Positions 991-37,980 of a DNA stretch of 64,000 bases are shown here, piece by piece. Numbering within the stretch: the stretch's first letter is position 1; each line of letters opens with the position of its first letter. Made by a program: the position numbers and the translations under genes. This stretch comes from Cyanidioschyzon merolae (Eukaryota), in NCBI GenBank assembly GCA_000091205.1, contig AP006493.2. One strand, 5' to 3'. The notes under the pieces were generated by a model. The model searched no databases, had not been told where the DNA came from, and saw only the letters and a program-made list of their open reading frames with translations.

Positions 991-2335
991 TGCGTAACAC
1001 GAAACGAAACGTAACGAGGCGGAAGATAACACGCTTTGTGTAGCAGCAGCAGTAGTCGTCGTAGTCATACTAGAAGCTATCTCGATTGGCGTTGCTGTCA
1101 TCTGGCCCCAGCTCCCAGCATGAGCGGTGCCTTTAGGATGAGTGAGCTTATGGCATCTCGCATGAACCCTTTTTGAGACTGCCTGCTCTTTCCCTCTTCA
1201 GTCCGTCTGTTGCAATTGATCGTCCGTGCTTGAAGCTGCTTCGATCCCGTGCAACTATAGCAGCTGCTGCAGCAACCGTGCTCGTTCTGCGCAATAGTCA
1301 GGGACGCCGTCTCTGGACACACCGTACGGCAGATGATTCCACGTATCGTATGGCGTGGAATCACTTCAGGGCCAGTGCTTCACTCGGACAGAGAAAAGCC
1401 CAGTGCTGGCATGAATTGGCCATCAAGCAGGACATGCATCCTGCGAGGTTCTTTGAATCAATTTCTGAACTTCTGCAATAGGCGGGGGAAGATGGTACTC
1501 GTGACCACGCGCATATAAGAGTCATCCGCAAAACCGGATAGACGCTACCTGGGCGCTGCGGATGGAAATCCACTGAAAGCGTCAACAAGCGCACTTGGGT
1601 AGGCCAGCGATTACTGCACAAACGCAGTAGAAAGAGTGTCATCCATCGACTCGCACATGGTTCATTAAGCGACTAGCTCATGGATTGCTCAGAGGGTCCA
1701 TTTCGCAGGGGAACACTACAGATCGAAGCTCACTCAACGGGAACTGCGACCCGCGTTTCGAGGGATGCTTTTGGGTTCTCGAAAGGCTCTGCAAGTGGAG
1801 CGCTGGTGGGTTATGTGGACGGAAACCACCACTGCACACAGCAATGCTCGTAGATATTCTCCCGTATTTGAGAATAAAGGAACGGGAATGCAAAGCTTTG
1901 CGTGCGTACACGTGAATGCAGCCTATCACAGGCATCGCGGGTGTCTTCATGTTGCATTGGGCTGGAAGGTTAATTTGAGGGCGGAGCAAAACGTACCTTC
2001 CATAAACTTCTGCGATGCTGATGTCAAGAGATCTCGCGCATCCGCAACCTGTAAGCCGACCAATGCCCCGAGCGGTGCGCCCGGTACCCATTCGTGTTGT
2101 GTCTTGGGCAGATAATGTATACGGTGTGCTGCACTGAAACTAATGGGTTTAAAAGTATTCGTGGATTTACGTTACACCTCGAGTAGCGAATCGTGATTCG
2201 TTTCTGCATTTCCAACCTGATGCGAGCGGCGGCATCTAGACGGCATCGGGTACGATGCATCCCTCCGGCAGCAGGTAAAGCACAGACGCTGCGCGTTGAA
2301 TGTCTCTGGAAGGAACCCGATGCAGCTGTAGAACT

Positions 2336-2896
2336 TCGATGAGAGCAATATACATAGTGCAGAAATCGATTCTACACGATTCTCATCGGTGCGTTCGGGG
2401 CGAAACCCACACATCATGGCACCGGATGCACACTGCAACAGGCCGAGAAGAAGAGCTTGAAACCGAGCCGACTGCACGAGATGGTACGCTGCAATTTGGT
2501 CGAACGTCACATGGCGAGGCTACCGATGGCTGAAGCCTTGCACGTCTGTGATTCACTCTGCAACGGTGCGCGCGCAGACGTGCTGCACCGAGTCTTGAAC
2601 GACTTGTGAAACAGTCCAAGATATCTGGTGCCTCTGCGGCGTCCAGTGGATTTGTGTCGAACGAACGCTCATGGTAATCGTTTAGCGCACAGCGTAGGCA
2701 TTGGCTGAACGGCAGAAGACTTTCGATTGAGAAACCAGTCATCAGGAGCCAAACGATACGATGTTCGCCCGATGCAAATCACTGATGTGGAAAGAGATGG
2801 CAATCTCAAAGGGCTAGAGCGCCGTATATCGAGACTGTGATCGTTTTCCCATGGCAACTGCTTAACGATAGTGTTATTCGACTATTCGATGTTCCT
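2336..2896 (-). repeat. IR-L: left copy of a ~560-bp near-identical inverted repeat (partner 11128-11690)
   Basis: Reverse complement of 11128-11690 with only a few mismatches. The small ORFs inside are identical in both copies (62-aa 'MPWENDHSLDIRRSS...' at 2669-2857(-) and 11166-11354(+)). Boundaries were found where flanking sequence diverges ('...gatgttcc|tgagtat' vs '...gatgttcc|acataa'). Confidence 0.9.
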
Positions 2897-3286
2897 GAGT
2901 ATTTGAGTGCCGTTACATCCGCAACAATGATATGTGCATTCGGATGGAGCGCCATCCACCAGAAGACTAACGATACAGCCATGAATCAATACTGCTGACA
3001 TAAAATCATGTTTGTCGGTCCATTTAGAGGGATGCGTTCCATACGGTGGACATTTGTTCGAAAGCACAAGCACCGAAACGCGCTGGCGTTTCCGCCTGAG
3101 CACCAGCAGACGCATCTGACGCATCAGCAGCGGAGGCGGCAACTAGCGCTAAGCGTACCCCTCGATGTCGCATGCGCGACGGCTGCGGAGGTCTTCGCGA
3201 GGTCAGTGCAAGCGTGATCAATGGTCTTCAAACACTTGAAACCCGTGCACGGAACTCGTGACTCGATTCCCAAATGCGGCATCTTC

Positions 3287-4912
3287 TTAGCTGCTGTCAG
3301 CGGAAGTTGGTTGTCTCGTTTCAGGTAGATAACGCCAAAGCCAATATTCCCCGCCCATTAATATCAGAGCAAAGAAGAGAAATGTTCCAGCAATGCCAAA
3401 CAGTTCCCGCTGCAAGAGCGGGAAACCGATACTCACCGCAGTGGTAGCGACAGCGTTCACAACCATTCCGATCGAGTTCGCCGACGCCCGAGCCTCCGGC
3501 GAAAACAATTCATTCGCGACAAGAACAGCAAGCGGCCCGTGAGAGACAGCAAATACAGCGACAAACAACATGAGCGCTAGAAAGCCCGTAAATGCGACAG
3601 AGGATGAACCGTTTTCTGCTCGGGTCGCCCGGGCAAGCGCAAGATGACAGGCAGCAAGCACTGGTGTTGAAAAAAGGTACAGTTTCCGACGACAGGTGCG
3701 ATCGATGATACCGACTGCAACCAGCGTGGCAATCACGTTCATGACGGATAAAAGCACAGCACCGTACAAAGGCCCAGATAATCTCGCAAGGCGCCTGGAA
3801 GAACCCATCGCACTGGATTGCACTTGTTCCAAAATTTGCACACCATACACGAGGACAACGTTGATTCCAGTCAACTGTTGGAGAAGTTGAAGTATCATGC
3901 ATATCTGTATCCGCGGATCGCGCAAAAGGAGCCACACGCTCGCTCGAGATCGAGCTGTCGGGGACGATCCCCGAGCCAAAACTGCGTACATCGCAAAGCT
4001 CTCCACATCTTTCAAGCTCAGTGACTCGTTTTGCAAAGAAGGCCTCGAGATAACGTTGAAAGAGTGTCCCGCCTCGGCAGCATCTGGACGCAAGGCGCGT
4101 GCACTCGCTACCATACTATGCTCCCGCTCTTTCCGCTGCGACATCGGTTTCCCGGTCTCCAGCATATCGGCACTCGTAGCGTCCCTGTATGCAGAAACGC
4201 CCATGGAGGACTGATAGCGCAGCAGGCCGATACACATCAAGATAGCGGGCACGAGTGGATAGCGCAAAGGTCGGAGAAAGTTTCCGCGCATGTCGATCCC
4301 GGCGCCACCAGCAACGGGATCCACTTGACGGTGTACATCCTCGTGACCAGTGGCAAGATTAACGAGATTGGCCATAAGAATACCGATTGTTATCGCGAGC
4401 TGATAGAGAAAGACAAAGGCGCCTCTGCTTGTTGACGGAGCAACCTCTAGACACAGAGCTGGCCCGAGAACGTTCACGATGCCGGCGCCGATGCCAATCA
4501 GCAAGCGGTGGATGAGCAGCACCAGAAACGCACCCATCTGGAAGCGACCTGTTAACATCCGTTCTCGTTTTATGAGAAAAGGAAGCCCCGACCCGAGACA
4601 GAAGAACACCGAGCTCCAGCGTAGCCATAAATAGCGGCGCCAAGCAGCAGTTCCCGCCCCATGCGCAAGAAACGGGAGGACCCTCTGGTACAGGCATCCG
4701 ACGAAAGCTCCGACAAAGTACGACCCAAGCAGAACTTGCTCCCCGGAAGGCCACGAGCCGAACCAGTCTTGGAACGAGCGGAACGTCGTTACCGTTGAGA
4801 ACACTGCCAAGTGGTACCCGAAAAGCAACCCGCCAAGCAAACAAGACAGCAAACAAGGCCGGGCCCCAAAAGTGCTCAGAAACCTCTTCCATCTCACTGT
4901 GACGGTTTCCAT
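3287..4912 (-). CDS. MFS sugar-porter family transporter (first ATG at 4912; ORF extends to a GTG at 4984)
   Basis: TM1 motif 'GGLLFGYHLAVFS' lies ~27 aa after Met. Sugar-porter signatures present: 'NVIATLVAVGIIDRTCRRKLYL', 'ELFSPEARASANSIGMVVNAVATT', 'LGSYFVGAFVGC'. Confidence 0.6.
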   Translation of the reverse strand: METVTVRWKRFLSTFGARPCLLSCLLGGLLFGYHLAVFSTVTTFRSFQDWFGSWPSGEQVLLGSYFVGAFVGCLYQRVLPFLAHGAGTAAWRRYLWLRWSSVFFCLGSGLPFLIKRERMLTGRFQMGAFLVLLIHRLLIGIGAGIVNVLGPALCLEVAPSTSRGAFVFLYQLAITIGILMANLVNLATGHEDVHRQVDPVAGGAGIDMRGNFLRPLRYPLVPAILMCIGLLRYQSSMGVSAYRDATSADMLETGKPMSQRKEREHSMVASARALRPDAAEAGHSFNVISRPSLQNESLSLKDVESFAMYAVLARGSSPTARSRASVWLLLRDPRIQICMILQLLQQLTGINVVLVYGVQILEQVQSSAMGSSRRLARLSGPLYGAVLLSVMNVIATLVAVGIIDRTCRRKLYLFSTPVLAACHLALARATRAENGSSSVAFTGFLALMLFVAVFAVSHGPLAVLVANELFSPEARASANSIGMVVNAVATTAVSIGFPLLQRELFGIAGTFLFFALILMGGEYWLWRYLPETRQPTSADSS

Positions 4913-5081
4913 GAAAGCAGGTCGAGCATAGTTTCTCACCAAGCAAACCAGTATGCCGCTCCGGCTGGCAGCAACTGCAAACACTTTTTTCCTCGTTGAA
5001 GTCGCCCTCGCAGATGCAGCCGATGCGTTTGGGATGTCGCAGTCGCAGCAGCCGCACTAGTTTCCTACCACTTCGGTTCGT

Positions 5082-25565: not shown

Positions 25566-26012
25566 AAGGTGCCAGAGCTGTCGCCAAAACAGCCGCGCCA
25601 TTCGCACTAAAAGCTCAAAAGGAACCGCGGAGGACAGGATACCCGCCCCACTGTTCCTCCGAACCGTGCGCTCGTCCATTCGACATACAATCGTCGTAGG
25701 CAGTTGACGCGTTCGGCGCGAATTCCTCCTATTTGGCGTTCGTAGCAGCTTGGCGCTATGGGAGCGAATCGGCGACACCGGTGGCCTCCGCCGGGATTGC
25801 GAGCCACAAGTGCTCAGAACAAACAACGCGTGGCTGGTCTTTGACGATTTAAGCGTCATTTTGCTTTTCTGCACAGGTCTCTATAGAATCAACCATAGGA
25901 ACCGCACGGAATACCTGACGCAGACTTGAACAGTATTGCCAGGAGCTATGGATTACACAGCCGCTGCATCTCCCGACGTGTGACGTGCAGCTGCGGGTAC
26001 AGCGCCCTCGAC

Positions 26013-27107
26013 ATGACGACTGCCATCATAGTTCATATATGGATAAAATTACTAGCACATGATCCTCAACCTCCCAGGCGATCTGCCGCGGAGCTCAGCG
26101 AGCACTGCCCTCTTTGTTTTCAGGCTCCGCTGGACAGGCTCATGTTCATCGTTAACAGTTTCCGAAATAGCTCTCAAAAGAGGCCCTTTGTTCGTAGAAG
26201 ACAGCCTATAGGTTTGAGCGTGCGTCCGAAACGCTGGTGTCGCACGCATGGCCTCGTGCTTGCGGAACACGAGGCGCCGGGGCGCCGGGCACCTCAAAAA
26301 CCTGCGATCAGCCTCCGCCTGGAGGTGGCAAAGTCTGCGGCGAGTATAGCTTGTGCACTCTTGTTTGCACTTGTTTGCGAAGACCAAGCTCGAAATGGTT
26401 TGAGCTCCAGTGGAACATCGTTAGCATCTGCGGCGATGGAGTCGAGCTTTTGCGGGACGACGAGCGAGGCGAGGCCTGCTGCCTCCGAAGGAACATGTAT
26501 TCAGAGGTTCCTGGAATCTCTGCAAATTCCTGGAGCGTTTGCCGCGGATCTAACTGGATTTGTCGAAGATGACACTGGAACCTCTCCAGGAAGCGTGGTT
26601 TCGCGAGTAAATAGCTCGCTGCAGGCTTTGGTTCAGAATACTGGTTACCGGGTTTTCATCCTAATAAAACGTGACATTCCACTCGGAACGGACTTGAATA
26701 GTCTCGCTCGGGAGGTTTATGAGTCAAAGAATGGTGATGGCAATCTTCTTGTTCTTGTTTTGAATCCGAAGACAGCCAAGGGAGGGTATTACGCAGGTGA
26801 TCAAGTGCAGAGAGCCATCCCAAACTCTGTTTTGATGAGCATCGCGAACGAGACCTATCCGTTCAACACACTGCAGGGCAAGTATGGTGCTGCACTTCTG
26901 GACGTTACCAACAGACTGGAGGCCGTTCTCTCGGGTCGCGATGACCCTGGCCCTCCGGTCGTTCGCAAATCTGAGAAGGTGGCCTCTTTTAAGACAAGAG
27001 AGGAGACCGAGAGTCAGCGAAAGAAATATGTGGGCGTCGTCGCCACTCTGCTGATCATCAGCGTCGTCGCGCCTATGGCGCAGTACTTTTGGTACCAGCG
27101 AAAATAG
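26013..27107 (+). CDS. TPM-domain (DUF477) protein with C-terminal TM anchor, possibly organelle-targeted
   Basis: 'VFILIKRDIPLGTDLNSLAREVYESKNGDGNLLVLVLNPKTAKGGYYAGDQVQRAIPNSVLMSIANETYPFNTLQGKYGAALLDVTNRLEAVLSG' matches the TPM fold pattern. C-terminal TM 'YVGVVATLLIISVVAP'. The track start at 25926 is TTG; in-frame ATGs lie at 26013 and 26142. Confidence 0.45.
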   Translation: MTTAIIVHIWIKLLAHDPQPPRRSAAELSEHCPLCFQAPLDRLMFIVNSFRNSSQKRPFVRRRQPIGLSVRPKRWCRTHGLVLAEHEAPGRRAPQKPAISLRLEVAKSAASIACALLFALVCEDQARNGLSSSGTSLASAAMESSFCGTTSEARPAASEGTCIQRFLESLQIPGAFAADLTGFVEDDTGTSPGSVVSRVNSSLQALVQNTGYRVFILIKRDIPLGTDLNSLAREVYESKNGDGNLLVLVLNPKTAKGGYYAGDQVQRAIPNSVLMSIANETYPFNTLQGKYGAALLDVTNRLEAVLSGRDDPGPPVVRKSEKVASFKTREETESQRKKYVGVVATLLIISVVAPMAQYFWYQRK

Positions 27108-27237
27108 CGCCCACAGCGTGCACGCTGGGTGCAGCGGCAGACATACTCGGCGAGTCAGGTGCTGGAGGCTGGACTTGTCACGGGGCGTCCGCCAGAGGTC
27201 TCTGTGTTGCCGCTGCGCTCGAACGGAACGCAGTCGC

Positions 27238-29364
27238 CTATCTTGCTTTAGAGCACGCGACCGTCTGTAGCATACTGGGGCCCTCCAGGGACACGGAACG
27301 CACTAGCGCCGCTTTGGGTAGGGCAGGCAGTGTCTGTCCCGGCAAAGCGGTGACGCTCGTGAAGTATCCACGCCGCTGCGTCCTCGCGCGGAGGCCCGGC
27401 GGGAGGGAGAAACCCTTCCCCAGCAGGCCACAGCAGCCGCAGCAGCATCTCCAAATGCAAGTTCGGCAGCAGCACAATAGCAAAAGAATGAGGAACAACA
27501 GGCCAATAAAAAACAAAATGTTCAGGATGCACACATTGGCGAAGATGCACCCAATATCCAGGAGCCCGCCGCAACTACCGCAACCGCCTGATGGGTACGG
27601 TGAACTTCCGGTATGCGTTAGGTTTCCAGATGTCGTCGATGCGCTGCCCCCTTGCGCGCCATCCGTAGTCCGCACACTACTAGCGTTAAATTCGAGAACG
27701 AGGACGTCCAGAACTTGACCCAGGGCGTTCCGCAATGTGCAGTTGCACACACCTGCTCCACCGGTCGCCTTGGTTTCTATAATAGGCAATGAAATTGAAA
27801 CAAGTTGACCCGGCGCTAGCGTCACGATCTGAGCCTGAATAGGTTCAACGTTAGGTTCACAGGATGCACTGACTGTAAACTGAGCCGCATTCTGTCCAGT
27901 TCCTTCAGAAACTATCCAAAGATCAATTAAACCTCCTTTCGATTGTGAAGTGAACGGATTAATCTTCGATAGATGACGTAGAAATCGAGCGGGTGCCAAA
28001 TAAATAGTGTAAAACAACTCCTCAGCCGCGAACTGTAGCACAACCTCAGTTGCTTGAGTCCGGTTTGTGAAAAACCGTAACAGTGGATTCCGTGGTGTCA
28101 ATCCACTGACGTCAAAATCACCAAAAAACTGGACAAAATAACTGCCAACCTTTCCGGTTTGCTCAAGAGCAAGATCCGAGTCATAGTAATCCTGAAGTTG
28201 ATCGTGGAGACATGATTGCGTTGGTCGCTCGCATCGCTGCCCCTCATTTGTGAATGCACTGTAACTAACACCAATCTTATCGCAAGTGTCTCCAGTGATC
28301 GTAACTAGATCGTTATCGATGAGCATCCACCGGTTTATCTCGGTGGGAATATAGGAAATTCGATCCACACACCAAGCCTCAGAGGTGTCGGTGCAGACTG
28401 AAGGAACGAAGAAGAGTTTCTCTGAGTATGATGGAGTTCCCTCCCACGGAGCAAAGTCACCAATCGCTTGAGCGCTTATTTTCCCGTTCGAGGCATAACC
28501 AATAGGAGAACTCGGTGAGAGTGAAATGATCTCGGTCGAGCAGTTTTGAATAGCTTGATCCTGATTTCCAACGAGCCCAGAAATTGATTTGATAGTACTG
28601 TTGGCGAGGGGGCATTTGGTAACGTTCACAAGAATTACAAAATTGACGTCGGGTTCGCCAATTTGGAAAGCAGAATACCACAAACTATCAAATCGCAAAC
28701 AGTGTGCTGACTCAGTGGGGTTATCAAAGTTGAGCAGACTGCAATCCAGTCCGCCACGAATTCTGTTTGGCGACAGCCCCAGTAAATCCCCAGCATTGCA
28801 ATCACAGCAGAAGCCTTGGGAGTAGAGTATCCGGTCTGCTGGTTTCGTTGACCAGCTGGGATTGTAAGCGTAACCGCATGTTGGGTCACTGCTGCCCCAG
28901 GTTGCGACGCACTGGTTATCCAGCCAGTTCAACGGACCCTTCTGGTTGTACTTGTAAACGATTTCATAGGGTTTGTTGTTAAAATCGCTTTGATAGTAAA
29001 GAGGGTAGTCCAGCCGTATCCTAGACTTTGTCAGTGTGATATGCACCTGATACTTGAAAGCGTACACTGTGTTAGGATTATCCGCCGATCGTACCGTTGC
29101 GTTCGCTGAACTGCTGCCGTACACGGCCTGGGTCGCACTTACGGAGGACGAGGCTGCCGTGGCTCCGTTTTCTACAGCTAGGGTAAGCACCCATTTTTTT
29201 GAGCAAGGAATGCTTCCTGGCCTCCCAGAATCCAGACAAGTAACTATACTTCCGACACCAGTAAGTGAGCCTCCGACGGAGGCAGAAAAAAACGGTGCTA
29301 CTAGCCACAGTGGGACTTGGAAAAATAGTAGCACGAATAGACTCCGCCGAAAGATAACCTTCAT
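27238..29364 (-). CDS. HAP2: Candidate HAP2/GCS1-type gamete fusogen (signal peptide, large Cys-rich ectodomain, TM helix, multi-Cys cytoplasmic tail)
   Basis: Signal 'MKVIFRRSLFVLLFFQVPLWLVAP'. Ectodomain blocks 'ILYSQGFCCDCNAGDLLG' and 'CDKIGVSYSAFTNEGQRCERPTQSCL'. TM 'ILFFIGLLFLILLLL' followed by 'CCCRTCIWRCCCGCC' and a basic tail. The overall architecture matches HAP2, but assignment is from memory of the family, not an alignment. The ORF is open to TTG 29517. Confidence 0.5.
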   Translation of the reverse strand: MKVIFRRSLFVLLFFQVPLWLVAPFFSASVGGSLTGVGSIVTCLDSGRPGSIPCSKKWVLTLAVENGATAASSSVSATQAVYGSSSANATVRSADNPNTVYAFKYQVHITLTKSRIRLDYPLYYQSDFNNKPYEIVYKYNQKGPLNWLDNQCVATWGSSDPTCGYAYNPSWSTKPADRILYSQGFCCDCNAGDLLGLSPNRIRGGLDCSLLNFDNPTESAHCLRFDSLWYSAFQIGEPDVNFVILVNVTKCPLANSTIKSISGLVGNQDQAIQNCSTEIISLSPSSPIGYASNGKISAQAIGDFAPWEGTPSYSEKLFFVPSVCTDTSEAWCVDRISYIPTEINRWMLIDNDLVTITGDTCDKIGVSYSAFTNEGQRCERPTQSCLHDQLQDYYDSDLALEQTGKVGSYFVQFFGDFDVSGLTPRNPLLRFFTNRTQATEVVLQFAAEELFYTIYLAPARFLRHLSKINPFTSQSKGGLIDLWIVSEGTGQNAAQFTVSASCEPNVEPIQAQIVTLAPGQLVSISLPIIETKATGGAGVCNCTLRNALGQVLDVLVLEFNASSVRTTDGAQGGSASTTSGNLTHTGSSPYPSGGCGSCGGLLDIGCIFANVCILNILFFIGLLFLILLLLCCCRTCIWRCCCGCCGLLGKGFSLPPGLRARTQRRGYFTSVTALPGQTLPALPKAALVRSVSLEGPSMLQTVACSKAR

Positions 29365-29642
29365 AGGAGAAGAAAAGCATACTCGAAAATAAGCAGTTGC
29401 AATGCTAGGTGGAGTTAAGAATCGGAAGGTATTCACTGGGACTATGAAAACACACTTACGTCCGGCCCTCATCGGGCAGAAAAACACCGCGGTCTCGCTG
29501 CGATTTGACTCATCCAAAGGTCGCGAAGATCCGATGGGCGAGGAATGGGTCGCAAAAGTACATCAAGTGTGCAAGTGTGTAAAACATTTTTCTCGAAAAT
29601 CAGTAAAATACATTCTCGTTCTCCTTCACGTAACAGAATTCA

Positions 29643-32600
29643 ATGATCTGTTTTAGCCTGTTTCGCATAGTTTCCAAGCTGTCGCTTGCAGCACTCTTGT
29701 GGCTTGTACTGCATTTTCTTCAAAAAGAAATCCTCGGAACCTCGCCAGCTGTGCAGATGAATGTAGTCCCTGAGGTTGCTCGGGCATCAGGGAATACGTC
29801 ACCTCTTTTCCTTTTCTATGAAGAATGTGGGGGGGCAAATTGGACTCTGAATCGCTTTTGCTCGAGCAATTGTTGGACTTCAAACTCTTCTCCTTGTGGA
29901 AGTTCAGATGATTGGATATTTGTTGACTGCACTTCAGCTGGACAAGTTTCAGGGCTCCATCTTGAACATGAAAATATATATTGTGGAGGGATCCCGGAGG
30001 AACTTGCATCGCTTGGTTATCTAAGTACGCTGGACCTGAGTTACAACCCAGATCTTCGTACAGTAATACCAACTTGGATATCGAATTTCACGAATCTCGT
30101 TGAGTTAAAATTTGAGGATTCTGGATTCTATGGTGAGGTGCCTGATAGCATCTGTATGTTACGTAGCCTTTCTTCTCTCAAAGGGAGGGAAAATGATCTT
30201 TCCGGAACAATTCCTGATTGTATAGGAGAGTTGAAATACTTGCATGATTTAAGTTTCGCGAGCAATGAAATGTCTGGCCAAATACCCGATTCTATTGGAA
30301 ATTGCAGCAATTTATATTTCTTGGACCTTAGTAACAACAATTTCTCGGGAACACTTCCGGATAGTATCGTCTACATGAAGAACTTGCAGATACTCGACTT
30401 ATCATACAATAGCCTCGAAGGCACTCTTCCGGAACTCTTCGGATTCAGCGAGCTGCAATTGCTCCTTCTCGGTCACAACAATTTCAGTGGCACCATACCG
30501 GAGTTGCCTCCGAACCTAGTCGCCGTGGACTTCTCGAGCAACAATTTCAGTGGACAAGTTCCCATTCTGCCCTCTACAGTAACAAGCGCCAACTTTACCG
30601 GAAATCACTTCAGCTGCCCGATCCCATTGGGATCCATATATGACACGGCGTCATGCATATGTCCCGCCGGCTGGGCTGGTAACCGTACGACATGCAAACA
30701 GTGTAGTCCCGGCACTATCGCACCCACAGATGGTTCTAGTGTTTGCATGGCGTGCCCCAACGGAACGTTTGCAAATGCATCGACAAGCTTCAGATTTTGT
30801 GGTACATGCCCTGCGGGAAGCTTTGCTGTATCCCCAGCCGGAAACTGCTCAATCTGTCCAAAAGGAACCTATCAGCAGTCGCGCGGTAGTTCCCAGTGCA
30901 ATACCTGCGCCCCAGGCTATTTCACGGACGAACTTGGAGCGAGCTCCTGCAAAATATGCCTGGCAGGATCTTATGCAGAACTAGCTGGAAGCACGGAGTG
31001 CAAAGCCTGCGCCCCGGGAACCTACGCAGCGAGTAACGGATCGACTTCGTGTCAAGCATGCGCAGCGGGCTCCTACGCCGGCAACTATAGCTCTGCTACA
31101 TGTCAGATATGCCCGGCAGGATCTTATGCAGAACTAGCTGGAAGCACGGAGTGCAAAGCCTGCGCCCCGGGAACCTACGCAGCGAGTAACGGATCGACTT
31201 CGTGTCAAGCATGCGCAGCGGGCTCCTACGCCGGCAACTACAACTCTACAGCGTGCGAGATATGCCCGGCGGGATCTTATGCAGAACTAGCTGGAAGCAC
31301 GGAGTGCAAAGCCTGCGCCCCAGGAACCTACGCAGCGAGTAACGGGTCGACCTCGTGTCAGACGTGCAAAGCGGGCTCCTACGCGGGCAACTACAACTCT
31401 ACAGCGTGCGAGATATGCCCGGCAGGATCTTATGCAGAACTAGCTGGAAGCACGGAGTGCAAAGCCTGCGCCCCAGGAACCTACGCAGCGAGTAACGGAT
31501 CGACTTCGTGTCAAGCATGCGCAGCGGGCTCCTACGCCGGCAACTATAGCTCTGCTACATGTCAGATATGCCCCGCGGGAACGTATGCAGCGAGTGAGGG
31601 TTCAAGTTCATGTGAGCCCTGTCCACCGGGGAGTTCCGGGAACTCTATTGGATCCAAGTCATGCTCACTATGTCCGGCTGGCTCGTTCGCAGCTTCAAAT
31701 GGGTCCACTATGTGCCAAAAATGCCCAGCCGGTTACTTCAGTGACACGCCCGGGGCTGCAGCTTGCAAACCATGTCCTCTGGGCGTCTTTGCAAGTTCAG
31801 AGGGCTCTCGTGCGTGCTCCTTATGTCCGGCAGGGCAGTATGCGCCAGTCAATGGATCCGTCTTTTGCTTGAACTGTCCGCCGGGGAGCTTTTCGAATCA
31901 CTCTGGAGCGTCTACGTGCTACCAGTGCGGCGCAGGCTACTTCTCAGACACGCGTGGCTCCACGAGCTGTAAGCTGTGTCCTTTGGGAACTTTTTCCGCT
32001 GGACAAGGGCAGACTAGTTGCGAGGCTTGCCCACCTGGTTTCTATACAAACCAAACAGGATCGACCTCGTGCAGTTCCTGCGCTCCAGGGCATTATCAGC
32101 CCAGCACTGGCGCCGGCGGCTGCTTACCGTGTCCCGCTGGTACTCGGGCCGGCGCGTCCGGTGCTCCACGCTGCGATGCCTGCCCTTCGGGAACATTCTC
32201 TAACGTGACAGGTGCTGCAGTCTGCATAGAATGCCCAGCAGGTTGGTACTCCCAGGGTAATAGTACAAAGTGTATCGCTTGCGACACAGGGAGTTACGCG
32301 CAGTTCAATGCCAGCGGCTCATGCACAGAAGCGCCACCGGGGAGTTTTGTCAACAGTACTGGAGCGGCGTACTTCCAGTATTGTCCACCGGGAACATTTT
32401 CAAACCGGAGCGGTGCATCCAAGTGCGAACCATGTGAAACAGGAACCTTCGTGACTTATCTGGGCGCGACATCGTGCACAGCGTGCCGTGCGGGCTACTC
32501 CGCGCCTGCCAACGGCTCTGTGAACTGCACCGTTTGTCCGGCCGGTACATTTGCGTATACAGCCCCGGACGCTGCTGGGCTTGGGCGAGGGGCGTCCACA

Positions 32601-33629
32601 TGCAAGCCCTGCCCAAAAGGGACTTTTAATCAATACGAGGCGCATACGAAGTGTGAGCCTGCTCCCAAGGGAGGCTACGTGAGCACTGACGGATCCACGA
32701 AATATGAAGTGTGCTCGCCTGGGATGTATTCAGATTCCTCGGGTGCTTTTGTCTGCGAGCCGTGTCCGAACGGGTATATGAGCGCCAACAGCTCCGCAAC
32801 TTCTTGCGTCAAATGCCCCGCAAACACGTATTCAGCGAACAGAACCGGTTCAACGGCGTGCAAACCGTGCCCAACTTTGGCGTACTTTGAGAGTGTCGTC
32901 GTGCCTCAGTACCGCGTCTGCAGTCCGAATGCGGCATCCGTTTTCGCAATCATTGCCGTTATTCTTGCTGGAATCCTACTTGCCATGCTCGTTTGGTACC
33001 TTGCTCGCCGCTACAGAGCGTACAGAGGGACAAAGCCTAACAAACGGGAACAAGATGTTGCTTCATCTGCTCCGCGCTCCGCGGAGGTGACCCACCGCCG
33101 CAAGTCGCGATCAGTATTGCGCCGTGGTAGCGATGACGGAGAAGTGCACCCAATGGACACCGTTTCAACGTTTGCAGCAATTCCCGTGTCAAGAGACGAA
33201 TTGGAAAGCAAATTCAGGACGCATCGCTCCTTTTCCGAGGCGATAGAGCCGGTCACGCCGGATCAACCGCAGCGCCGAATATCAAGATACAGTCGCTCGG
33301 TTTCAGCTTCGAGATTCGGAATCCTTCTGGCATCCACTGCAGCATCTGGAGAGGGACGCTCCCAAAGTCTCACCCGGAAACGTCTATCATTCGCTACAGA
33401 GCAAGCGGCACGGGAGAGTGCCCACGGAGACGATGCAGCTTCCGACACGGACGATATTGTCCCGCTGCCGGGCAGCACACCCCAGCACCTGGCAGGAAAT
33501 ACTCCGCGAAAGCAGATTACGTTCGCAACTCCACAAAAAGAGCCAAAGTGGATTAGGGTCAGGACGGAGGAAGGTGCATATTACTTGCTGAATCGCCTGA
33601 ACGGAGAAATGTACGCGATCGGACCCTGA
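29643..33629 (+). CDS. Large type-I receptor-like surface protein: signal peptide, plant-type LRRs, ~25 ephrin-receptor/TNFR-like Cys repeats (CxxCxxGxY), TM helix, ~210-aa cytoplasmic tail
   Basis: LRRs 'LSYNPDLRTVIPTWISNFTNLVEL', 'NDLSGTIPDCIGELKYLHDL', 'NNFSGTLPDSIVYMKNLQIL'. Repeats 'CKACAPGTYAASNGSTSCQACAAGSYAG...'. TM 'VFAIIAVILAGILLAMLVWYL'. The start codon is ATG. Confidence 0.75.
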   Translation: MICFSLFRIVSKLSLAALLWLVLHFLQKEILGTSPAVQMNVVPEVARASGNTSPLFLFYEECGGANWTLNRFCSSNCWTSNSSPCGSSDDWIFVDCTSAGQVSGLHLEHENIYCGGIPEELASLGYLSTLDLSYNPDLRTVIPTWISNFTNLVELKFEDSGFYGEVPDSICMLRSLSSLKGRENDLSGTIPDCIGELKYLHDLSFASNEMSGQIPDSIGNCSNLYFLDLSNNNFSGTLPDSIVYMKNLQILDLSYNSLEGTLPELFGFSELQLLLLGHNNFSGTIPELPPNLVAVDFSSNNFSGQVPILPSTVTSANFTGNHFSCPIPLGSIYDTASCICPAGWAGNRTTCKQCSPGTIAPTDGSSVCMACPNGTFANASTSFRFCGTCPAGSFAVSPAGNCSICPKGTYQQSRGSSQCNTCAPGYFTDELGASSCKICLAGSYAELAGSTECKACAPGTYAASNGSTSCQACAAGSYAGNYSSATCQICPAGSYAELAGSTECKACAPGTYAASNGSTSCQACAAGSYAGNYNSTACEICPAGSYAELAGSTECKACAPGTYAASNGSTSCQTCKAGSYAGNYNSTACEICPAGSYAELAGSTECKACAPGTYAASNGSTSCQACAAGSYAGNYSSATCQICPAGTYAASEGSSSCEPCPPGSSGNSIGSKSCSLCPAGSFAASNGSTMCQKCPAGYFSDTPGAAACKPCPLGVFASSEGSRACSLCPAGQYAPVNGSVFCLNCPPGSFSNHSGASTCYQCGAGYFSDTRGSTSCKLCPLGTFSAGQGQTSCEACPPGFYTNQTGSTSCSSCAPGHYQPSTGAGGCLPCPAGTRAGASGAPRCDACPSGTFSNVTGAAVCIECPAGWYSQGNSTKCIACDTGSYAQFNASGSCTEAPPGSFVNSTGAAYFQYCPPGTFSNRSGASKCEPCETGTFVTYLGATSCTACRAGYSAPANGSVNCTVCPAGTFAYTAPDAAGLGRGASTCKPCPKGTFNQYEAHTKCEPAPKGGYVSTDGSTKYEVCSPGMYSDSSGAFVCEPCPNGYMSANSSATSCVKCPANTYSANRTGSTACKPCPTLAYFESVVVPQYRVCSPNAASVFAIIAVILAGILLAMLVWYLARRYRAYRGTKPNKREQDVASSAPRSAEVTHRRKSRSVLRRGSDDGEVHPMDTVSTFAAIPVSRDELESKFRTHRSFSEAIEPVTPDQPQRRISRYSRSVSASRFGILLASTAASGEGRSQSLTRKRLSFATEQAARESAHGDDAASDTDDIVPLPGSTPQHLAGNTPRKQITFATPQKEPKWIRVRTEEGAYYLLNRLNGEMYAIGP
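30949..31560 (+). repeat. Four tandem 153-bp (51-codon) near-identical units inside the receptor-like CDS
   Basis: Units begin at ~30949, 31102, 31255 and 31408. Each encodes 'C(K/Q/E)IC(L/P)AGSYAELAGSTECKACAPGTYAASNGSTSCQ(A/T)C(A/K)AGSYAGNY(S/N)S(A/T)(T/A)' at ~97% nt identity. Confidence 0.9.
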
Positions 33630-33675: not shown

Positions 33676-34848
33676 CTATCCCCCGGCAGGATTCGGGAAC
33701 GCCGCCCGCGGAGTGCCTTCATCTATGTCTGATTTCGGCGTGTACGCTTCTGTTGAGGCAGCACCGGAGCTCGTTCGCACGGCGTCGGCTGCAAAAGGGT
33801 GCATGCTCATGATGAGAAGGTCCAGCTCCGCCAAACCGTGTATCCTTTGAGCGTGGAATAGCAGATTAGCCTTTTGTGCGAAAGGACGGCCGCAATCCAA
33901 AACCGGGCAACGGAAGCGTATTTCCCTCAGATGCACGGCTCTGTAGTGCGTGTTTGCGTTTCCTTTCTGAGAGAATCTTCTACCACAGCCCGGATACGGG
34001 CAGCCGAATGGCTTTTCTCGCTCGTGAACTGTTCTTATGTGAACCTGCAAATTCCCACTCAGGGTAAAACGCCGCCCGCAGCCCGAAAAAGGACACACGT
34101 GCTTTCCAAACTGGCCCCGCTGCGCACCGGGTGGCAAATTCGAGCACCTTCGTTTGCGGCGAGGCTGCAGGGAAGTCCCCGAGTGATAACGCTGATCCAA
34201 TGTTATTAGACGTGCGGCTTCTGAATCGATCCTGCCGAGCCACGTTCCGGTCGGAGCTGACCGTGGCGTTGCCGGAAAGCGACTCAGTGGCGAGCTTTCG
34301 GAGATGCTTGACATTACATTTCCACTGGATTCATCGCACTCGAGAGCAAACAGCTCCGCTCCCGAGACGGCCAGCGCATCGGTCGTTCGACTTGTCGATG
34401 GCGCACTGTGGGGAATGCTATCTTGTGAAGGCGAGTCTAATGTCGATGCGCCAGGTGCGGTGCACACCGAACTGATGTCCTCTGACGCGCATCGACTTAG
34501 AGGTCGACTCGTTTCAAAGGAGGGCGACCACAAGTTCGCGACCGGAAAGGCTGGAGCCGAAAGCGGCGCGCACGGGATCCCCGTCTCGTGTAGCAGAGCT
34601 TGGGTCCCGCTGGTCACGGAGACCGACAGCTCTCTCCAGGGAGGCCTCCTAGTGCTCTTTCCGACATTCGCTTGCCTAACTGTACCTTTCGGGGGTACAT
34701 TCTGTTCATGATCCTCAAGGAGATCAGCTATGTGCACGCGTAGATCGTGTTCTGAGAAAGCCGCGCGAAAGGGTTCCGCTCCAATGCCGCTCGCACTCGG
34801 CTGTTCAGAAGACGTTCCTCGAGCGTCGCTGGGCGTCACCGCTTCCAT
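33676..34848 (-). CDS. C2H2 zinc-finger protein (three C-terminal TFIIIA/YY1-type fingers)
   Basis: 'HVCPFSGCGRRFTLSGNLQVHIRTVHEREKPFGCPYPGCGRRFSQKGNANTHYRAVHLREIRFRCPVLDCGRPFAQKANLLFHAQRIH'. The track start at 34869 is GTG; the first ATG is at 34848. Confidence 0.7.
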   Translation of the reverse strand: MEAVTPSDARGTSSEQPSASGIGAEPFRAAFSEHDLRVHIADLLEDHEQNVPPKGTVRQANVGKSTRRPPWRELSVSVTSGTQALLHETGIPCAPLSAPAFPVANLWSPSFETSRPLSRCASEDISSVCTAPGASTLDSPSQDSIPHSAPSTSRTTDALAVSGAELFALECDESSGNVMSSISESSPLSRFPATPRSAPTGTWLGRIDSEAARLITLDQRYHSGTSLQPRRKRRCSNLPPGAQRGQFGKHVCPFSGCGRRFTLSGNLQVHIRTVHEREKPFGCPYPGCGRRFSQKGNANTHYRAVHLREIRFRCPVLDCGRPFAQKANLLFHAQRIHGLAELDLLIMSMHPFAADAVRTSSGAASTEAYTPKSDIDEGTPRAAFPNPAGG

Positions 34849-36109
34849 CCCCTGAGCTGTGTCACTCACTGAACAGGTGGCCCACGAAACGTGGAAGCGT
34901 TAAAAAGCAAAGATATCAACTAAACCAATGATAAACACAGAAAAGTCAAAGAAGACGCTTACAGCCCCTTCAAGCGGGACTGCCTCCGCGATTCAGAGCA
35001 CAGCAAGTCTCAAACCTGCTACGTCCTTCGAACCTTCCTTCTCGGGGCACCTCGTGCTTCTACCAACCCTCAACGGTCTTTTAAGACGCACGAAGCGCAC
35101 CAGGAGCTCGAATCTCTAACGAACAGAGCCCGAAAATGGATCTTTATCGTGTGTCTCTTTCAGGCGCCGCCTGCATCTGTGCGGGTTGTCATGTCGACCA
35201 GGCCGATTTCATGGCGGATGGCAGGGGCGCGGCTGCGAATCGAACGGAGGGCTGTGCGAAGCGCAGGCCCCGACCTATTTCTACGGCTGCGCATATGGAC
35301 ACGTGTCAGGGAAAACGATCTCCGCGCGTGCACTCCAATTCTGGCAGGCTGGTGCGTCACGGTCACATTGCTGCTCCACGCTCATGTCGATCGCGCTGCG
35401 TTCGCTGCTGCTTGACGTGACGCGGTATCGGTCGTGAGGGACAGATGGAGACGCAGAAGTAGGCACTGTGCACGAGATGCTCCACAGGTGCGGGACACGT
35501 TTAGATGTAACTCGAGACCCTAATTGGGAAATATATCAAACAAGAGATTGTGTGTCCCAAGTGCAAAGGCGCCCAAGACTCTCACGTTCGAGTGCGAGAT
35601 TTTCTCGTCGCTGAGAAACACTAGGTTTGCACCCAGAGGAGACGAGTAAAACTGTGTGCTTTGAGACGTGTAGCTTGGTTCCTGTGGAAGCCTTGTCTAT
35701 AAGACTTTGACATACGCATGCGACCGCGCCATTTTTCCCGGTCGTTGACTGACGAAGCTCGACAGTTCGACTTCCTTACCTGTAGAAAATTAACGACTCA
35801 CTCTGCACCTGCGCACTGCTGTACGTCATGGTTGCGCAGGCTGTACCGCGCATGAATACCAATTAAGCAAATAGGTAAGCTCGCTTCAACTATTACTGTA
35901 GTTGGAGGATGGCAACGGTTTCGATGAAAAGCAGAGCACAGGCCTGTGGGCTATGCCCTCGGGAGCTGTAGGACTTCGATCTGCAGCCGTGGAAAAGTAA
36001 AGCGGGGCACTGTGCTGCATGCTTTTGTTCATGTCTACTGATATTCTTTCCGAATTGTTTTCAGAGTTACTGCGTCGACATTCAAAGTGCAGCCGCAAGA
36101 GCACACGGC

Positions 36110-37250
36110 TCTGTACGGAGGTTTGCGATGATCCGGCGTCGTTTCGAGTCGCTCATTCAACTCGCTGTCGTTGGAACTCGTTCCGCCACCGGAATCACGA
36201 TGCTTTGCGACGCTCTCGAACGAAGATTCGTAAAATAACCGATCTGGTTATCCTGTTTGTACGCACAAGCCGTATCTTCACAGTTCCTTAATTGGAGCAT
36301 GCTCATATTACACGTTCTTCAAATTTTCAATCTTTCTAGTTAAAGGCAACTCGTGGGCGCAGCAATGCGATCCTCTGAATATACGAGGAAAACTACCAAT
36401 CGTCTTTGACGACTTTTTTACAAACTCACGCCAAAATTGCACTGAACAGCACATGAGAGATAATCGATGCCGCTCGAAACGCAAGGCGTTCTCTCTTTGT
36501 GGATATCAAAGAAACGGGATTCTACAGCTGCATGATGTCCCGAAAGGGATGTGCTCCTAGAGGTTCCGGTCTCTTTTGTTTCCATACAAAATCGTTCTCG
36601 ACCCGGACTTGAGTCATCGCAGCGATCGCTTCCAGTGGAGAGGGCGTCATCGCTTTGCAACATGATAGTATAGACCGATCGAAATTTCTCGGTTTGCTCT
36701 CCAGCCCGAGGGCTCTTTCCGATGCTTGTTCGATCGTGGACGAAATCGCACCCCATAAATACCATTTTGAATGGAACAGCACGCGCTTGCGCGTGCCACA
36801 GACAGCGTACATGTCGAAGAAATTGCCCAGTGGGACCCCGTGGTCTTGAGAAACGGTACGGGGCGTTGAAACGGAGAATGGCACCAGTGATAGCGTCCTG
36901 TGCCCGTCAAGGGTATGTACTGAGTAACGCAGTAGGCGTTCACGCGGCACAAGTCAGCTCTGGTAGGCGGAGGTATGATTGACATGTAGTAACACACGAC
37001 CACAACCAGGTGTCACAGCCGCGAAGGACACACCTACGCTGTACATAAAGACGATGAACCTGGCAAGGGAAGTGTAGATCCTAGCCTCCCTCTGTGCATG
37101 AAATGCGGAGATAACAGCCGGCAGCAGCGAAATCAGGACTCTAACGCCGCCGTCAACATACCGTGACTGCTGACAACGGAACTGGACGGACAGGAGAGAC
37201 CGACTAATTTCAGGCCGGTGCTTTCAGAGAGCGAAAAAAATTTGTCAAAG
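36110..37250 (-). repeat. R1-B: full-length copy of the R1 dispersed repeat family
   Basis: Collinear with R1-A, R1-C and R1-D. The overlapping small ORFs at 36418-37003 match R1-C ORFs in more than one frame, so conservation is at nucleotide level. Confidence 0.7.
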
Positions 37251-37980
37251 AACAAGCCCACAAATGCTGGTGTTCTTAACTGTGGAAAAAGATCCAAACT
37301 TTAGCTTGTACGCTCGTGTTAGAGTAAATGTTCCATTTTATTCTGACGTAGGTGTCGATGATCGACGAGCATCCGCTGAAAGTTCCACGATAGTGCAGAG
37401 CCTCGATCCGGTTGTAGTCCAGGGCGAAAGCATGTGGGGGCTCGGAATCCAATCAAAGACTTTGTGTCGTTACCACTGATGCGTGTTCCCATGGTGCACT
37501 GTAGGTGCGTCTTATCGGACTCCCAGGGATAGCTACCAGCTGTCGATAAGCAGCGGTAATACCATCGTGTACCCACGCACGCTCTAGAGAATCCCGTGCG
37601 CCTCTGATCCACATGCCAACAAAATTGCGAGAAAAAAGTGAACAATTTTCTACTGGTGCCAATAGCACTCAGAGATACGCGTCCAGCCATTCACCAGGAT
37701 AAGGTGCACAACGCGTTGCAGGGCGCTGTCGCGTTCCAGTTCCACGCTTGGAGCAGCCTCGAAGCACTGCGCCGCATTTGATGGCGCTTCGCGCGCCGAC
37801 TGGACGGTGCCGTTCCAACGCGCAGACGTTAGGGAGGGTCGCTCTCCGCCTCGACAAGCCGTACCCAGTAAACCTCTCGGGAGAGTTCCTTGTGCGAGAC
37901 AAAAGCTTACCTTACTCGAGATCCTTCGATTCGTACGCGGTAACCCGAGACGCTTCATAAGTGAAGTCTTGCTTTTCTCC

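Follow-up and report, generated by a model that had tools for sequence, protein, structure and literature searches.

Fungal MAT idiomorphs, such as mat A and mat a of Neurospora, are dissimilar sequences at one chromosomal position, where the flanks are homologous, the boundaries are sharp, and recombination is locally suppressed; they encode transcription factors. In Chlamydomonas reinhardtii, adhesion through mating-type-specific single-pass glycoproteins (FUS1 and MAR1) is needed before the gamete fusogen HAP2 trimerizes and fuses membranes, and the adhesion gene FUS1 lies in the mating-type (MT+) locus (PMC8777248). In Tetrahymena thermophila, self/non-self recognition upstream of HAP2, which is expressed in all mating types, is the task of MTA and MTB (PMC7786109, PMC8777248), two genes arranged head to head in which the mating-type-specific parts, the sequence between the genes included, are <60% identical and the shared C-terminal parts >99% identical (PMC7786109). 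Here we consider a 64,000-nucleotide stretch of Cyanidioschyzon merolae contig AP006493.2 (assembly GCA_000091205.1; hereafter the window), in which the HAP2 gene CMK076C and CMK078C, the gene of a receptor-like type I membrane protein, diverge from a short spacer. The spacer and the 5' ends of both genes together form one of two idiomorphs, and this region is very probably the mating-type locus of the species.

Several elements of this picture are already in the literature. The identity and structure of C. merolae HAP2 were reported in 2022 (Feng et al., Nat Commun, PMC9279424), and all cultivable Cyanidiophyceae have since been described as having a sexual cycle (Hirooka et al., Plant Cell 2026, PMC13353863). 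In the latter work, the 10D strain of C. merolae was shown to be a haploid clone, with isogamous mating to haploid derivatives of MS1, a Yellowstone diploid, and two mating types are distinguished (10D, Ha5, and Ha6 versus Ha2, Ha3, and Ha15). A candidate mating-type region was placed between CMK076C and CMK078C, with a length of ~1 kb in 10D and of ~2.6 kb in MS1 Ha3; diploid MS1 carries both, and among the clones typed by PCR the form carried is correlated with mating type (PMC13353863). According to the authors, the region alters cis-regulatory sequence and both protein N termini. In the literature searched, this paper alone mentions the two gene IDs. The gene identities, the sexual cycle, and the candidate region had thus been published, and the present finding is a rediscovery. 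To it we add the base-exact boundaries (29266-30275), both idiomorphs from environmental metagenomes, the position of one boundary between rungs 5 and 6 of the receptor's leucine-rich repeat (LRR) solenoid, the unequal divergence of LRR scaffold and binding face, a GC minimum, a WW-like motif in the receptor tail, a diploid-specific zinc-finger neighbor, and contig breaks at both boundaries in a sister lineage.

Two idiomorphs between the fusogen and receptor genes

When metagenomes were scanned with the HAP2 ectodomain as query, three contigs of C. merolae were recovered (L001, L002, and L003). L002 and L003 are colinear with the window and 99.8% identical to it over 27001-30950. L001 aligns with the window over 27517-29265 (99.4% identity) and again over 30276-30425 (98%), and between these flanks it carries 2,623 bp that cannot be aligned. 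Dissimilar sequences of 1,010 bp (window, L002, and L003) and 2,623 bp (L001) therefore occupy one position between flanks that are 98-99.4% identical, which is the relationship of idiomorphs. Their sizes agree with the published ~1 kb and ~2.6 kb, so the locus is the same (Table 1).

The opposite idiomorph contains a 27-codon HAP2 leader, a 1,882-bp spacer, and a 220-codon receptor tip that is in frame with the shared remainder of the gene. The HAP2 N terminus begins MKVIFRRSLF... in 10D and MRIHLAK... in Ha3 (Fig. S9, PMC13353863); the window has the 10D form, and the leader in L001 matches the Ha3 form. A few Ha3 HAP2 substitutions in a machine reading of the same figure are absent from L001 and could be reading errors or strain differences, so L001 is placed in the Ha3 class by its idiomorph only.

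The effect of the idiomorph on mature HAP2 is slight. Besides the signal peptide, at most about six mature residues differ, and outside the idiomorph the L001 protein departs from that of the window by a single substitution, F213L, which also occurs in the 10D-type environmental contigs. Between the two receptor tips, identity is 29% across 220 alignment columns and 32-34% across the mature or LRR part. Both reading frames are intact, and both tips are still recognized as LRR domains. Compared in LRR register, the tips agree at 16 of 25 scaffold positions versus 2 of 25 concave-face positions, a pattern suggesting that the LRR fold has been kept while the putative binding face has been replaced. 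In a structural model of the receptor computed with AlphaFold2 (AF2), the boundary on this side separates rung 5 of the ten-rung solenoid from rung 6.

Both idiomorphs are also low in GC (0.44 for the 10D-type and 0.42 for the opposite form, versus 0.50-0.56 in the flanking coding sequence), and no other kilobase of the window has a GC content as low as that of the 10D-type idiomorph (0.43-0.44 versus a mean of 0.537). The HAP2-side flank of L001, compared over 1,749 bp, has 6 mismatches against L002, a 10D-type contig, and 11 against the window. Because this flank is closer to L002 than to the window, the flanks appear to recombine across mating types up to the boundary. At the receptor-side edge, 3 mismatches lie within the first 150 bp, which suggests that this boundary is slightly fuzzier than that on the HAP2 side. 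The sharp boundaries, the flank mismatches, and the GC minimum, as seen in the four sequences compared, all indicate recombination that is suppressed inside the idiomorph and free outside it. In line with this suppression, the 10D-type idiomorph shows 0 differences in 1,010 bp among the window, L002 (8991-10000), and L003 (7292-8301), as against ~0.3% in the surrounding 3 kb, a hint, in a small sample, that diversity within the 10D-type class is reduced.

The gap between the HAP2 and receptor start codons is 278 bp. Neighboring junctions in the window have gaps of 46-130 bp, so close spacing is usual here and the adjacency of the two genes is in itself unremarkable; the pairing matters because of the idiomorph structure, the expression data, and the synteny. 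From its place between two divergent genes, the 278-bp spacer is a putative promoter region. A scan of it for bacterial-type promoters and terminators, a type of scan inapplicable to a eukaryote, returned nothing. The spacer of the opposite idiomorph has no blastn or tblastx similarity to that of the window, nor to the window at large, L002, L003, or an RWP-RK protein query. It holds no open reading frame (ORF) longer than 113 amino acids, its small ORFs have no Pfam match at E<=1, and neither an Rfam family at E<=0.1 nor meaningful repeats were found in it.

Table 1. Features of the HAP2-receptor region and its immediate neighbors (positions in the window unless a contig is named)
Feature	Position	Strand	Extent or content	Basis
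10D-type idiomorph of the candidate mating-type locus	29266-30275		1,010 bp: HAP2 codons 1-33, 278-bp spacer, receptor codons 1-211	
Opposite (Ha3-type) idiomorph	L001 151-2773		2,623 bp	
Divergent intergenic spacer, putative shared or back-to-back promoter region	29365-29642		278 bp, wholly idiomorph-specific	
HAP2/GCS1 gene CMK076C	27238-29364	-	708 amino acids + stop	Pfam, 7S0K identity
HAP2 signal peptide	29284-29364	-	residues 1-27, hydrophobic	
HAP2-GCS1 domain	about 27526-29214	-		Pfam PF10699
HAP2 GFCCDC motif	28798-28815	-	within ectodomain	
HAP2 transmembrane helix	27475-27555	-	residues 604-630	hydropathy scan
HAP2 poly-Cys cluster CCCRTCIWRCCCGCC	27430-27474	-	directly after transmembrane helix	
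Receptor-like type I membrane protein gene CMK078C	29643-33629	+	1328 amino acids + stop	Pfam
Receptor tip, specific to the idiomorph (candidate mating-type-specific part)	29643-30275	+	residues 1-211: signal peptide, Cys-containing N-cap, LRR rungs 1-5	
Ten-rung plant-type LRR solenoid	29937-30632	+	residues about 99-330	AF2, Foldseek
Cys-rich stalk	30663-32912	+	~25 ephrin-receptor-like/TNFR-like repeats, 82 Cys	Pfam
153-bp tandem array in stalk	30954-31590	+	4.2 copies, 91% matches	
Receptor transmembrane helix	32940-33008	+	residues 1100-1122	hydropathy scan
C-terminal WW-like motif KWIRVRTEEGAYYLLNRLNGEMYAIGP	33546-33626	+	residues 1302-1328, end of 206-residue tail	
C2H2 zinc-finger gene CMK079C	33676-34869	-	tail-to-tail with receptor	Pfam zf-C2H2
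TPM-domain gene CMK075C	25926-27107	+	tail-to-tail with HAP2	Pfam TPM_phosphatase

The two proteins and their expression

An earlier note on this DNA, made from the sequence alone, had proposed that the minus-strand ORF encodes a HAP2 fusogen, with a signal peptide, a Cys-rich ectodomain, one transmembrane helix, and a basic tail containing CCCRTCIWRCCCGCC, and all of these are present. The ectodomain has 19 Cys residues, the GFCCDC motif included, and the Cys-rich, basic cytoplasmic tail with the cluster is 78 residues long. In the profile search that the note had proposed, Pfam PF10699 matches the product over the whole model (1-515 of 515) with 566 bits (gathering cut-off 27.4) and E=6.9e-170. 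Residues 28-564 are identical to PDB chain 7S0K_A, the monomeric prefusion form of C. merolae HAP2, which has the three-domain class II fold (Feng et al., Nat Commun 2022, PMC9279424) and whose ectodomain is numbered 28-564 of XP_005536505.1 in the same paper. The window is accordingly nuclear DNA of C. merolae. At position 565 it encodes R and the chain has H, which is probably the start of the construct's His-tag. The HAP2 structures of Trypanosoma, Chlamydomonas, and Arabidopsis match as well (E=2e-64 to 8e-27). With hydrophobic segments at residues 8-28 and 599-643 followed by the poly-Cys/basic tail, the protein has type I topology, and in domain, fold, and topology it is a class II HAP2 fusogen.

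The start of the HAP2 gene deserves comment, as the frame is open for 51 codons upstream of the annotated ATG (29365-29517) and contains an ATG at 29472 and a TTG at 29517. Read from this first TTG, the ORF spans 27238-29517 and encodes 759 amino acids, versus 708 from the annotated ATG at 29364. Residue 28 of the 708-residue form is the first residue of 7S0K_A, which argues that 29364 is the start used biologically. Because the signal peptide begins only at this ATG, and because in the opposite idiomorph a stop codon interrupts the frame 30 codons before the HAP2 ATG, the upstream extension is probably not translated. Of the spacing that the earlier note described, then, the 278-bp gap from 29364 to 29643 stands, and the alternative start at 29472 is probably to be set aside.

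The receptor-like gene likewise agrees with its first description as a 1328-residue type I membrane protein with LRRs and ephrin-receptor-like repeats: the ORF, the Pfam repeats, and a single transmembrane helix all fit, and CMK078C has been called a receptor-like LRR/GFR/TNFR protein (PMC13353863). Pfam places LRR families at the N terminus and then 25 Ephrin_rec_like stretches (E=1e-103), overlapped by TNFR and NCD3G Cys-repeat models, and these Cys repeats occupy about 750 residues after the LRRs. The Pfam N-cap model LRRNT_2 is unmatched, no kinase domain is present, and the tail has no Pfam domain at E<=10. The AF2 model of residues 33-345 consists of an N-cap and ten LRR rungs (predicted local distance difference test score (pLDDT) 87, predicted template-modeling score 0.86). 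Its top Foldseek matches are all plant LRR receptor ectodomains, among them MIK2 (E=5e-16), ERL1, FLS2, and PGIP (template-modeling score 0.75). With an extracellular solenoid and N-cap, a single transmembrane helix, and no kinase, the protein has the makeup of a plant-type LRR receptor-like protein. Homology searches with the LRR domain found generic plant-type LRR proteins, mostly of land plants; the top ones were inspected and are not orthologues. Look-ups of the exact products (the 708- and 744-residue forms of HAP2 and the 1328-residue receptor) returned no record. The identities of HAP2 and its receptor-like neighbor are practically beyond doubt.

The receptor tail, 206 residues rich in Ser, Thr, and basic residues, is restricted to this lineage, with only 3 matches among 1.84 billion representatives. 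Its last ~27 residues are conserved in the sister-lineage orthologue (P0133) and more weakly in a more distant relative (P0135), following the pattern KW[IV]RV[RK]T..G..YLLNRLNGEMYAI[GS]P. AF2 folds this motif as a three-stranded sheet (pLDDT ~93), and the list of Foldseek matches is made up mostly of WW domains, none of them significant (best E=0.23). Relative to the WW signature, the motif has the first Trp and the terminal Pro and lacks the second Trp, and Pfam finds no match.

In the stalk, each 153-bp unit of the tandem array encodes 51 residues, or three Cys-repeat units. Compared with the 4.2 copies of the window, the array has one unit more in L003 (6130-6613) and two more in L002 (7982-8318). 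Since copy number thus varies among 10D-type alleles, the length of the stalk is polymorphic in nature.

Transcript abundances, in transcripts per million (TPM), were taken from the RNA-seq values of Data Sets S8 (C. merolae, three replicates) and S9 (Cyanidium caldarium) of PMC13353863. HAP2 stands at 14-17 TPM in diploid MS1, 59-69 in haploid Ha3, and 106-116 in haploid 10D. The receptor stands at 18-19 TPM in diploid MS1 and 23-28 in haploid 10D, and at 93-108 in haploid Ha3, where reads were apparently quantified on 10D gene models and, if so, the receptor would be under-counted rather than over-counted. The ratio of HAP2 to receptor transcript consequently flips by mating type, from about 4:1 in 10D to about 0.6:1 in MS1 Ha3. 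In Cyanidium caldarium the orthologues, g1397 and g1398, are adjacent and rise from <0.3 TPM in diploid cells to 50-150 TPM in haploid cells (PMC13353863); both are >500-fold haploid-specific (Data Set S9). Such co-expression is consistent with a putative bidirectional promoter. Constitutive and independent expression, which the earlier note had named as the pattern that would speak against a functional pair, is not what these values show; expression is haploid-enriched and mating-type-biased in C. merolae and haploid-specific in Cyanidium.

Neighboring genes and related loci

The gene order of the window (zinc finger, receptor, HAP2, TPM-domain gene, GST) is kept in Cyanidium caldarium, and the TPM-domain neighbor CMK075C is conserved across Cyanidiophyceae (contig L004 and the gene tables of Cyanidium and Galdieria). 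In a sister lineage, represented by contig L004, HAP2 has about 69% nucleotide and 70% amino-acid identity to that of C. merolae and the order HAP2-TPM-GST-NF-YC is kept. A second contig of the same metagenome (L008; JGI 3300041539) keeps the order receptor-zinc finger-TAF6-Ssu72-DEAD-UDPGDH, and the synteny of the zinc-finger gene is maintained in both L008 and another contig, L009.

The ends of the two sister-lineage contigs bear directly on the idiomorph. The first HAP2 residue encoded by L004 is residue 35 (C. merolae boundary, 33|34), and the first receptor residue encoded by L008 is residue 208 (boundary, 211|212). Both ends lie 1-4 codons from the boundaries, in LRR sequence in the case of the receptor and not in the repeat array, and so point to an assembly fork at a polymorphic interval. 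These breaks are best explained if the sister lineage is polymorphic over the same interval as the C. merolae idiomorph. The start of L009, about one LRR before the equivalent of the boundary, was not taken as evidence of a shared idiomorph; it is ambiguous because the near-identical LRR units there could break an assembly by themselves. In the adjacent, shared LRRs, L008 is 71% and L009 49% identical to C. merolae, whereas the two C. merolae tips are only 32-34% identical to each other. Because the divergence of the tips exceeds that between lineages, the idiomorphs would be either older than the lineage splits or fast-evolving under selection.

Outside this group the arrangement changes. Galdieria-type HAP2 loci (L005 and L006, from Logan SRR29605939 and SRR25885127) have as neighbors a UPF1 helicase, a 219-residue protein without a Pfam match, a bZIP gene, and lycopene cyclase, in agreement with the gene table of G. 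partita. Given the Galdieria arrangement, the pairing of HAP2 and receptor is not universal in the class and appears limited to its Cyanidioschyzon/Cyanidiococcus/Cyanidium side. On the question raised in the earlier note of whether orthologues of the two genes are adjacent in related genomes, the answer is thus divided: they are in Cyanidium caldarium and are not in Galdieria.

The zinc-finger gene CMK079C is expressed at 153-173 TPM in the diploid versus 0.3-1.9 TPM in both haploid types, and its Cyanidium orthologue, in the same position, at 180-209 TPM in the diploid versus 1.1-1.8 TPM (PMC13353863). A haploid-specific pair and a diploid-specific transcription factor therefore make up a conserved three-gene block. 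CMK079C goes unmentioned in the main text of that paper. Between the start of the zinc-finger gene and TAF6, positions 34870-37806 of the window comprise 2.9 kb without a convincing ORF (the longest has 142 amino acids), an unusually long gap for a compact genome; L008 and L009 have 1.7 and 0.18 kb there, respectively. An RWP-RK-like tblastn match at 35120-35284 (E=0.15) was rejected, having neither the motif nor a supporting ORF.

At the HAP2-TPM tail-to-tail junction, which measures 130 bp in the window, L004 (Ga0453586_001648) has an insertion of ~2.9 kb (2026-4917) that carries a small RWP-RK gene (139 amino acids, Pfam E=4e-10), a member of the family of MID, the Chlamydomonas sex determinant. 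The insertion is flanked by duplicated fragments of the HAP2 and TPM 3' ends. The canonical haploid-specific RWP-RK genes (CMN310C, CcyanHa1_g2497, and CdcalHa5_g1191) map elsewhere, so the gene in L004 is an extra copy, and it could be specific to one haplotype. In another eukaryote (L007 8649-11413; JGI 3300062347, Ga0606064_0159), two TALE-class Homeobox_KN ORFs immediately precede a distant HAP2 (33% identity) and a third is located about 9 kb away, so that the fusogen is physically linked to the KNOX/BELL-type family of zygote-identity genes.

A candidate mating-type locus, its alternatives, and known systems

Overall, we regard as the best explanation, and as a probable one, that the region is the candidate mating-type locus of C. 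merolae, here in its 10D-type form, acting through recognition by the receptor tips. In this mechanism, the promoter region borne by the idiomorph would set a mating-type-specific ratio of HAP2 to receptor transcript, and the ligand-binding face, also borne by the idiomorph, would sit on an otherwise shared receptor stalk. Only where unlike cells meet would the two LRR tips recognize one another, or else a ligand specific to the partner. Heterotypic contact of the tips would then make the cells adhere at this site or set off a licensing signal there, which the conserved WW-like motif of the receptor tail may relay. HAP2, with its near-invariant mature ectodomain, would next insert its fusion loops, trimerize, and merge the membranes as other class II fusogens do. 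Of these steps, recognition by the tips is the one we propose more tentatively, giving it somewhat less than an even chance. The compact gamete recognition-and-fusion module suggested in the earlier note agrees with the published region that co-segregates with mating type (PMC13353863) and with the two idiomorphs recovered independently here, and the sexual cycle that the note had read from the gene pair has been demonstrated by mating experiments (PMC13353863).

A more far-reaching version, which we think possible though rather doubtful, is that the idiomorph is ancient and common to the cyanidialean genera with the same two boundaries, its LRR tips forming a self/non-self pair that licenses HAP2. 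In at least one haplotype of the sister lineage, the MID-like RWP-RK gene beside HAP2 may add a transcription-factor layer.

Several considerations weigh against the recognition mechanism and its extension to other genera. The role of the receptor in gamete recognition is inferred from its position, allelic divergence, and expression. The correlation with mating type comes from a handful of clones and from one genome comparison of strains from different continents (PMC13353863). The RNA-seq was done on vegetative haploids, which according to the authors were perhaps not yet gametes, and the HAP2 orthogroup is a haploid differentially expressed gene in 1 of 3 columns of their orthogroup table (PMC13353863). 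Both genes are detectable in diploids (~16-18 TPM), and in C. merolae they are not strictly co-regulated, as their transcripts vary independently between mating types. The support that contig ends lend to a shared idiomorph in the sister lineage is indirect. Galdieria, which also mates, has different HAP2 neighbors and no LRR receptor beside HAP2. Finally, the 1.9-kb spacer of the Ha3-type idiomorph could conceal the real determinant.

The alternative that survives best, though we consider it unlikely, is that the idiomorph is regulatory only. Its promoter region would set the dosage or timing of HAP2, of the receptor, or of both, such that, for example, one partner is the main HAP2 donor; the divergence of the tips and signal peptides would be a by-product of recombination suppression, and the receptor would have a generic surface or signaling role in haploids. 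The unrelated spacers with their 7-fold difference in length (278 versus 1,882 bp), the transcript ratios that differ between mating types, and the nearly unchanged mature HAP2 are all as this explanation would have them, and the asymmetry of HAP2 in Chlamydomonas is itself regulatory (PMC8777248). However, HAP2 differs <2-fold between the two haploid types, and the tips have kept an open frame and their scaffold (16/25) while the concave face (2/25) was replaced, a contrast that selection on binding specificity fits better than neutral decay.

Less probable still is a hidden determinant, either an unannotated small gene or a noncoding RNA in the extra ~1.9 kb of the Ha3-type form that acts by presence or absence in the manner of MID, with HAP2 and the receptor as mere neighbors. 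A spacer of 1,882 bp does stand out among the intergenic gaps of 46-280 bp seen here, and in the sister lineage an RWP-RK gene of 139 amino acids is found in an insertion directly beside HAP2. The absence from this spacer of any ORF >113 amino acids and of any Pfam, Rfam, or RWP-RK match tells against such a determinant, which would also leave unexplained the 633 bp of receptor coding sequence that the idiomorph takes in without loss of the reading frame. That the region is no mating-type locus at all but a hypervariable pair of receptor alleles under balancing or diversifying selection that has nothing to do with sex (for example, for pathogen or environmental sensing), correlated with mating type by chance or through linkage to a true locus nearby, is very improbable: plant-type LRR ectodomains typically belong to immune and peptide receptors and few clones were typed (PMC13353863), but the authors' genome comparison singled out this compact region, both forms of which occur in the diploid (PMC13353863), the region borders on the gamete fusogen gene, expression of both genes in Cyanidium is haploid-specific, and the flanks recombine freely up to sharp boundaries, which makes linkage to a distant locus unlikely.

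C. merolae is a minimal-genome model eukaryote that was long regarded as asexual and whose strain 10D can be modified by homologous recombination (PMC13353863), and a 1-kb locus at the start of the ancestral gamete fusogen gene would be a very compact system for specifying isogamous mating types. It would also help to show how recognition and HAP2-driven fusion are coupled and how far back such loci date in the plant lineage. Were the idiomorph ancient and common to these genera, it would be among the smallest known mating-type loci, with the fusogen gene itself part of the locus.

Compared with known systems, the locus is a hybrid of features. It shares with fungal MAT idiomorphs the organization outlined at the outset, but in C. 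merolae the idiomorph consists of a promoter region and an extracellular receptor tip, cuts two coding sequences, and is unusually small (1.0 and 2.6 kb). CMK078C resembles the plant LRR receptors MIK2, ERL1, FLS2, and PGIP in its plant-specific 24-residue LRRs and Cys-containing N-cap, and is unlike them in lacking a kinase, in its stalk of ~25 ephrin-receptor-like repeats, which is atypical for plant receptor-like proteins, and in its lineage-restricted tail.

The likeness to Chlamydomonas lies in a mating-type-specific, single-pass surface protein that would act ahead of HAP2 and is encoded at the mating-type locus. The proteins themselves differ, as FUS1 has Ig-like domains and MAR1 is proline-rich, and neither has LRRs or ephrin-like repeats. 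FUS1 and MAR1 are, moreover, unrelated to each other, whereas the C. merolae tips are alleles of one gene. HAP2 is found in minus gametes only in Chlamydomonas, whereas in C. merolae it is transcribed in both haploid types and abuts the idiomorph.

With MTA and MTB of Tetrahymena, the C. merolae pair has in common a head-to-head arrangement in which the specific parts include the intergenic sequence and the shared C-terminal parts carry Cys-rich repeats (furin-like, of growth-factor-receptor type, in Tetrahymena) and membrane anchors (PMC7786109, PMC8777248). MTA and MTB are paralogues with five transmembrane helices each, and their seven types arise by somatic DNA rearrangement; C. merolae has two Mendelian idiomorphs, a pair composed of HAP2 and an unrelated receptor with one transmembrane helix each, and an LRR head as the mating-type-specific part. 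The C. merolae genes are thus not a gene pair of the Tetrahymena type, and what the two systems have in common is their overall logic.

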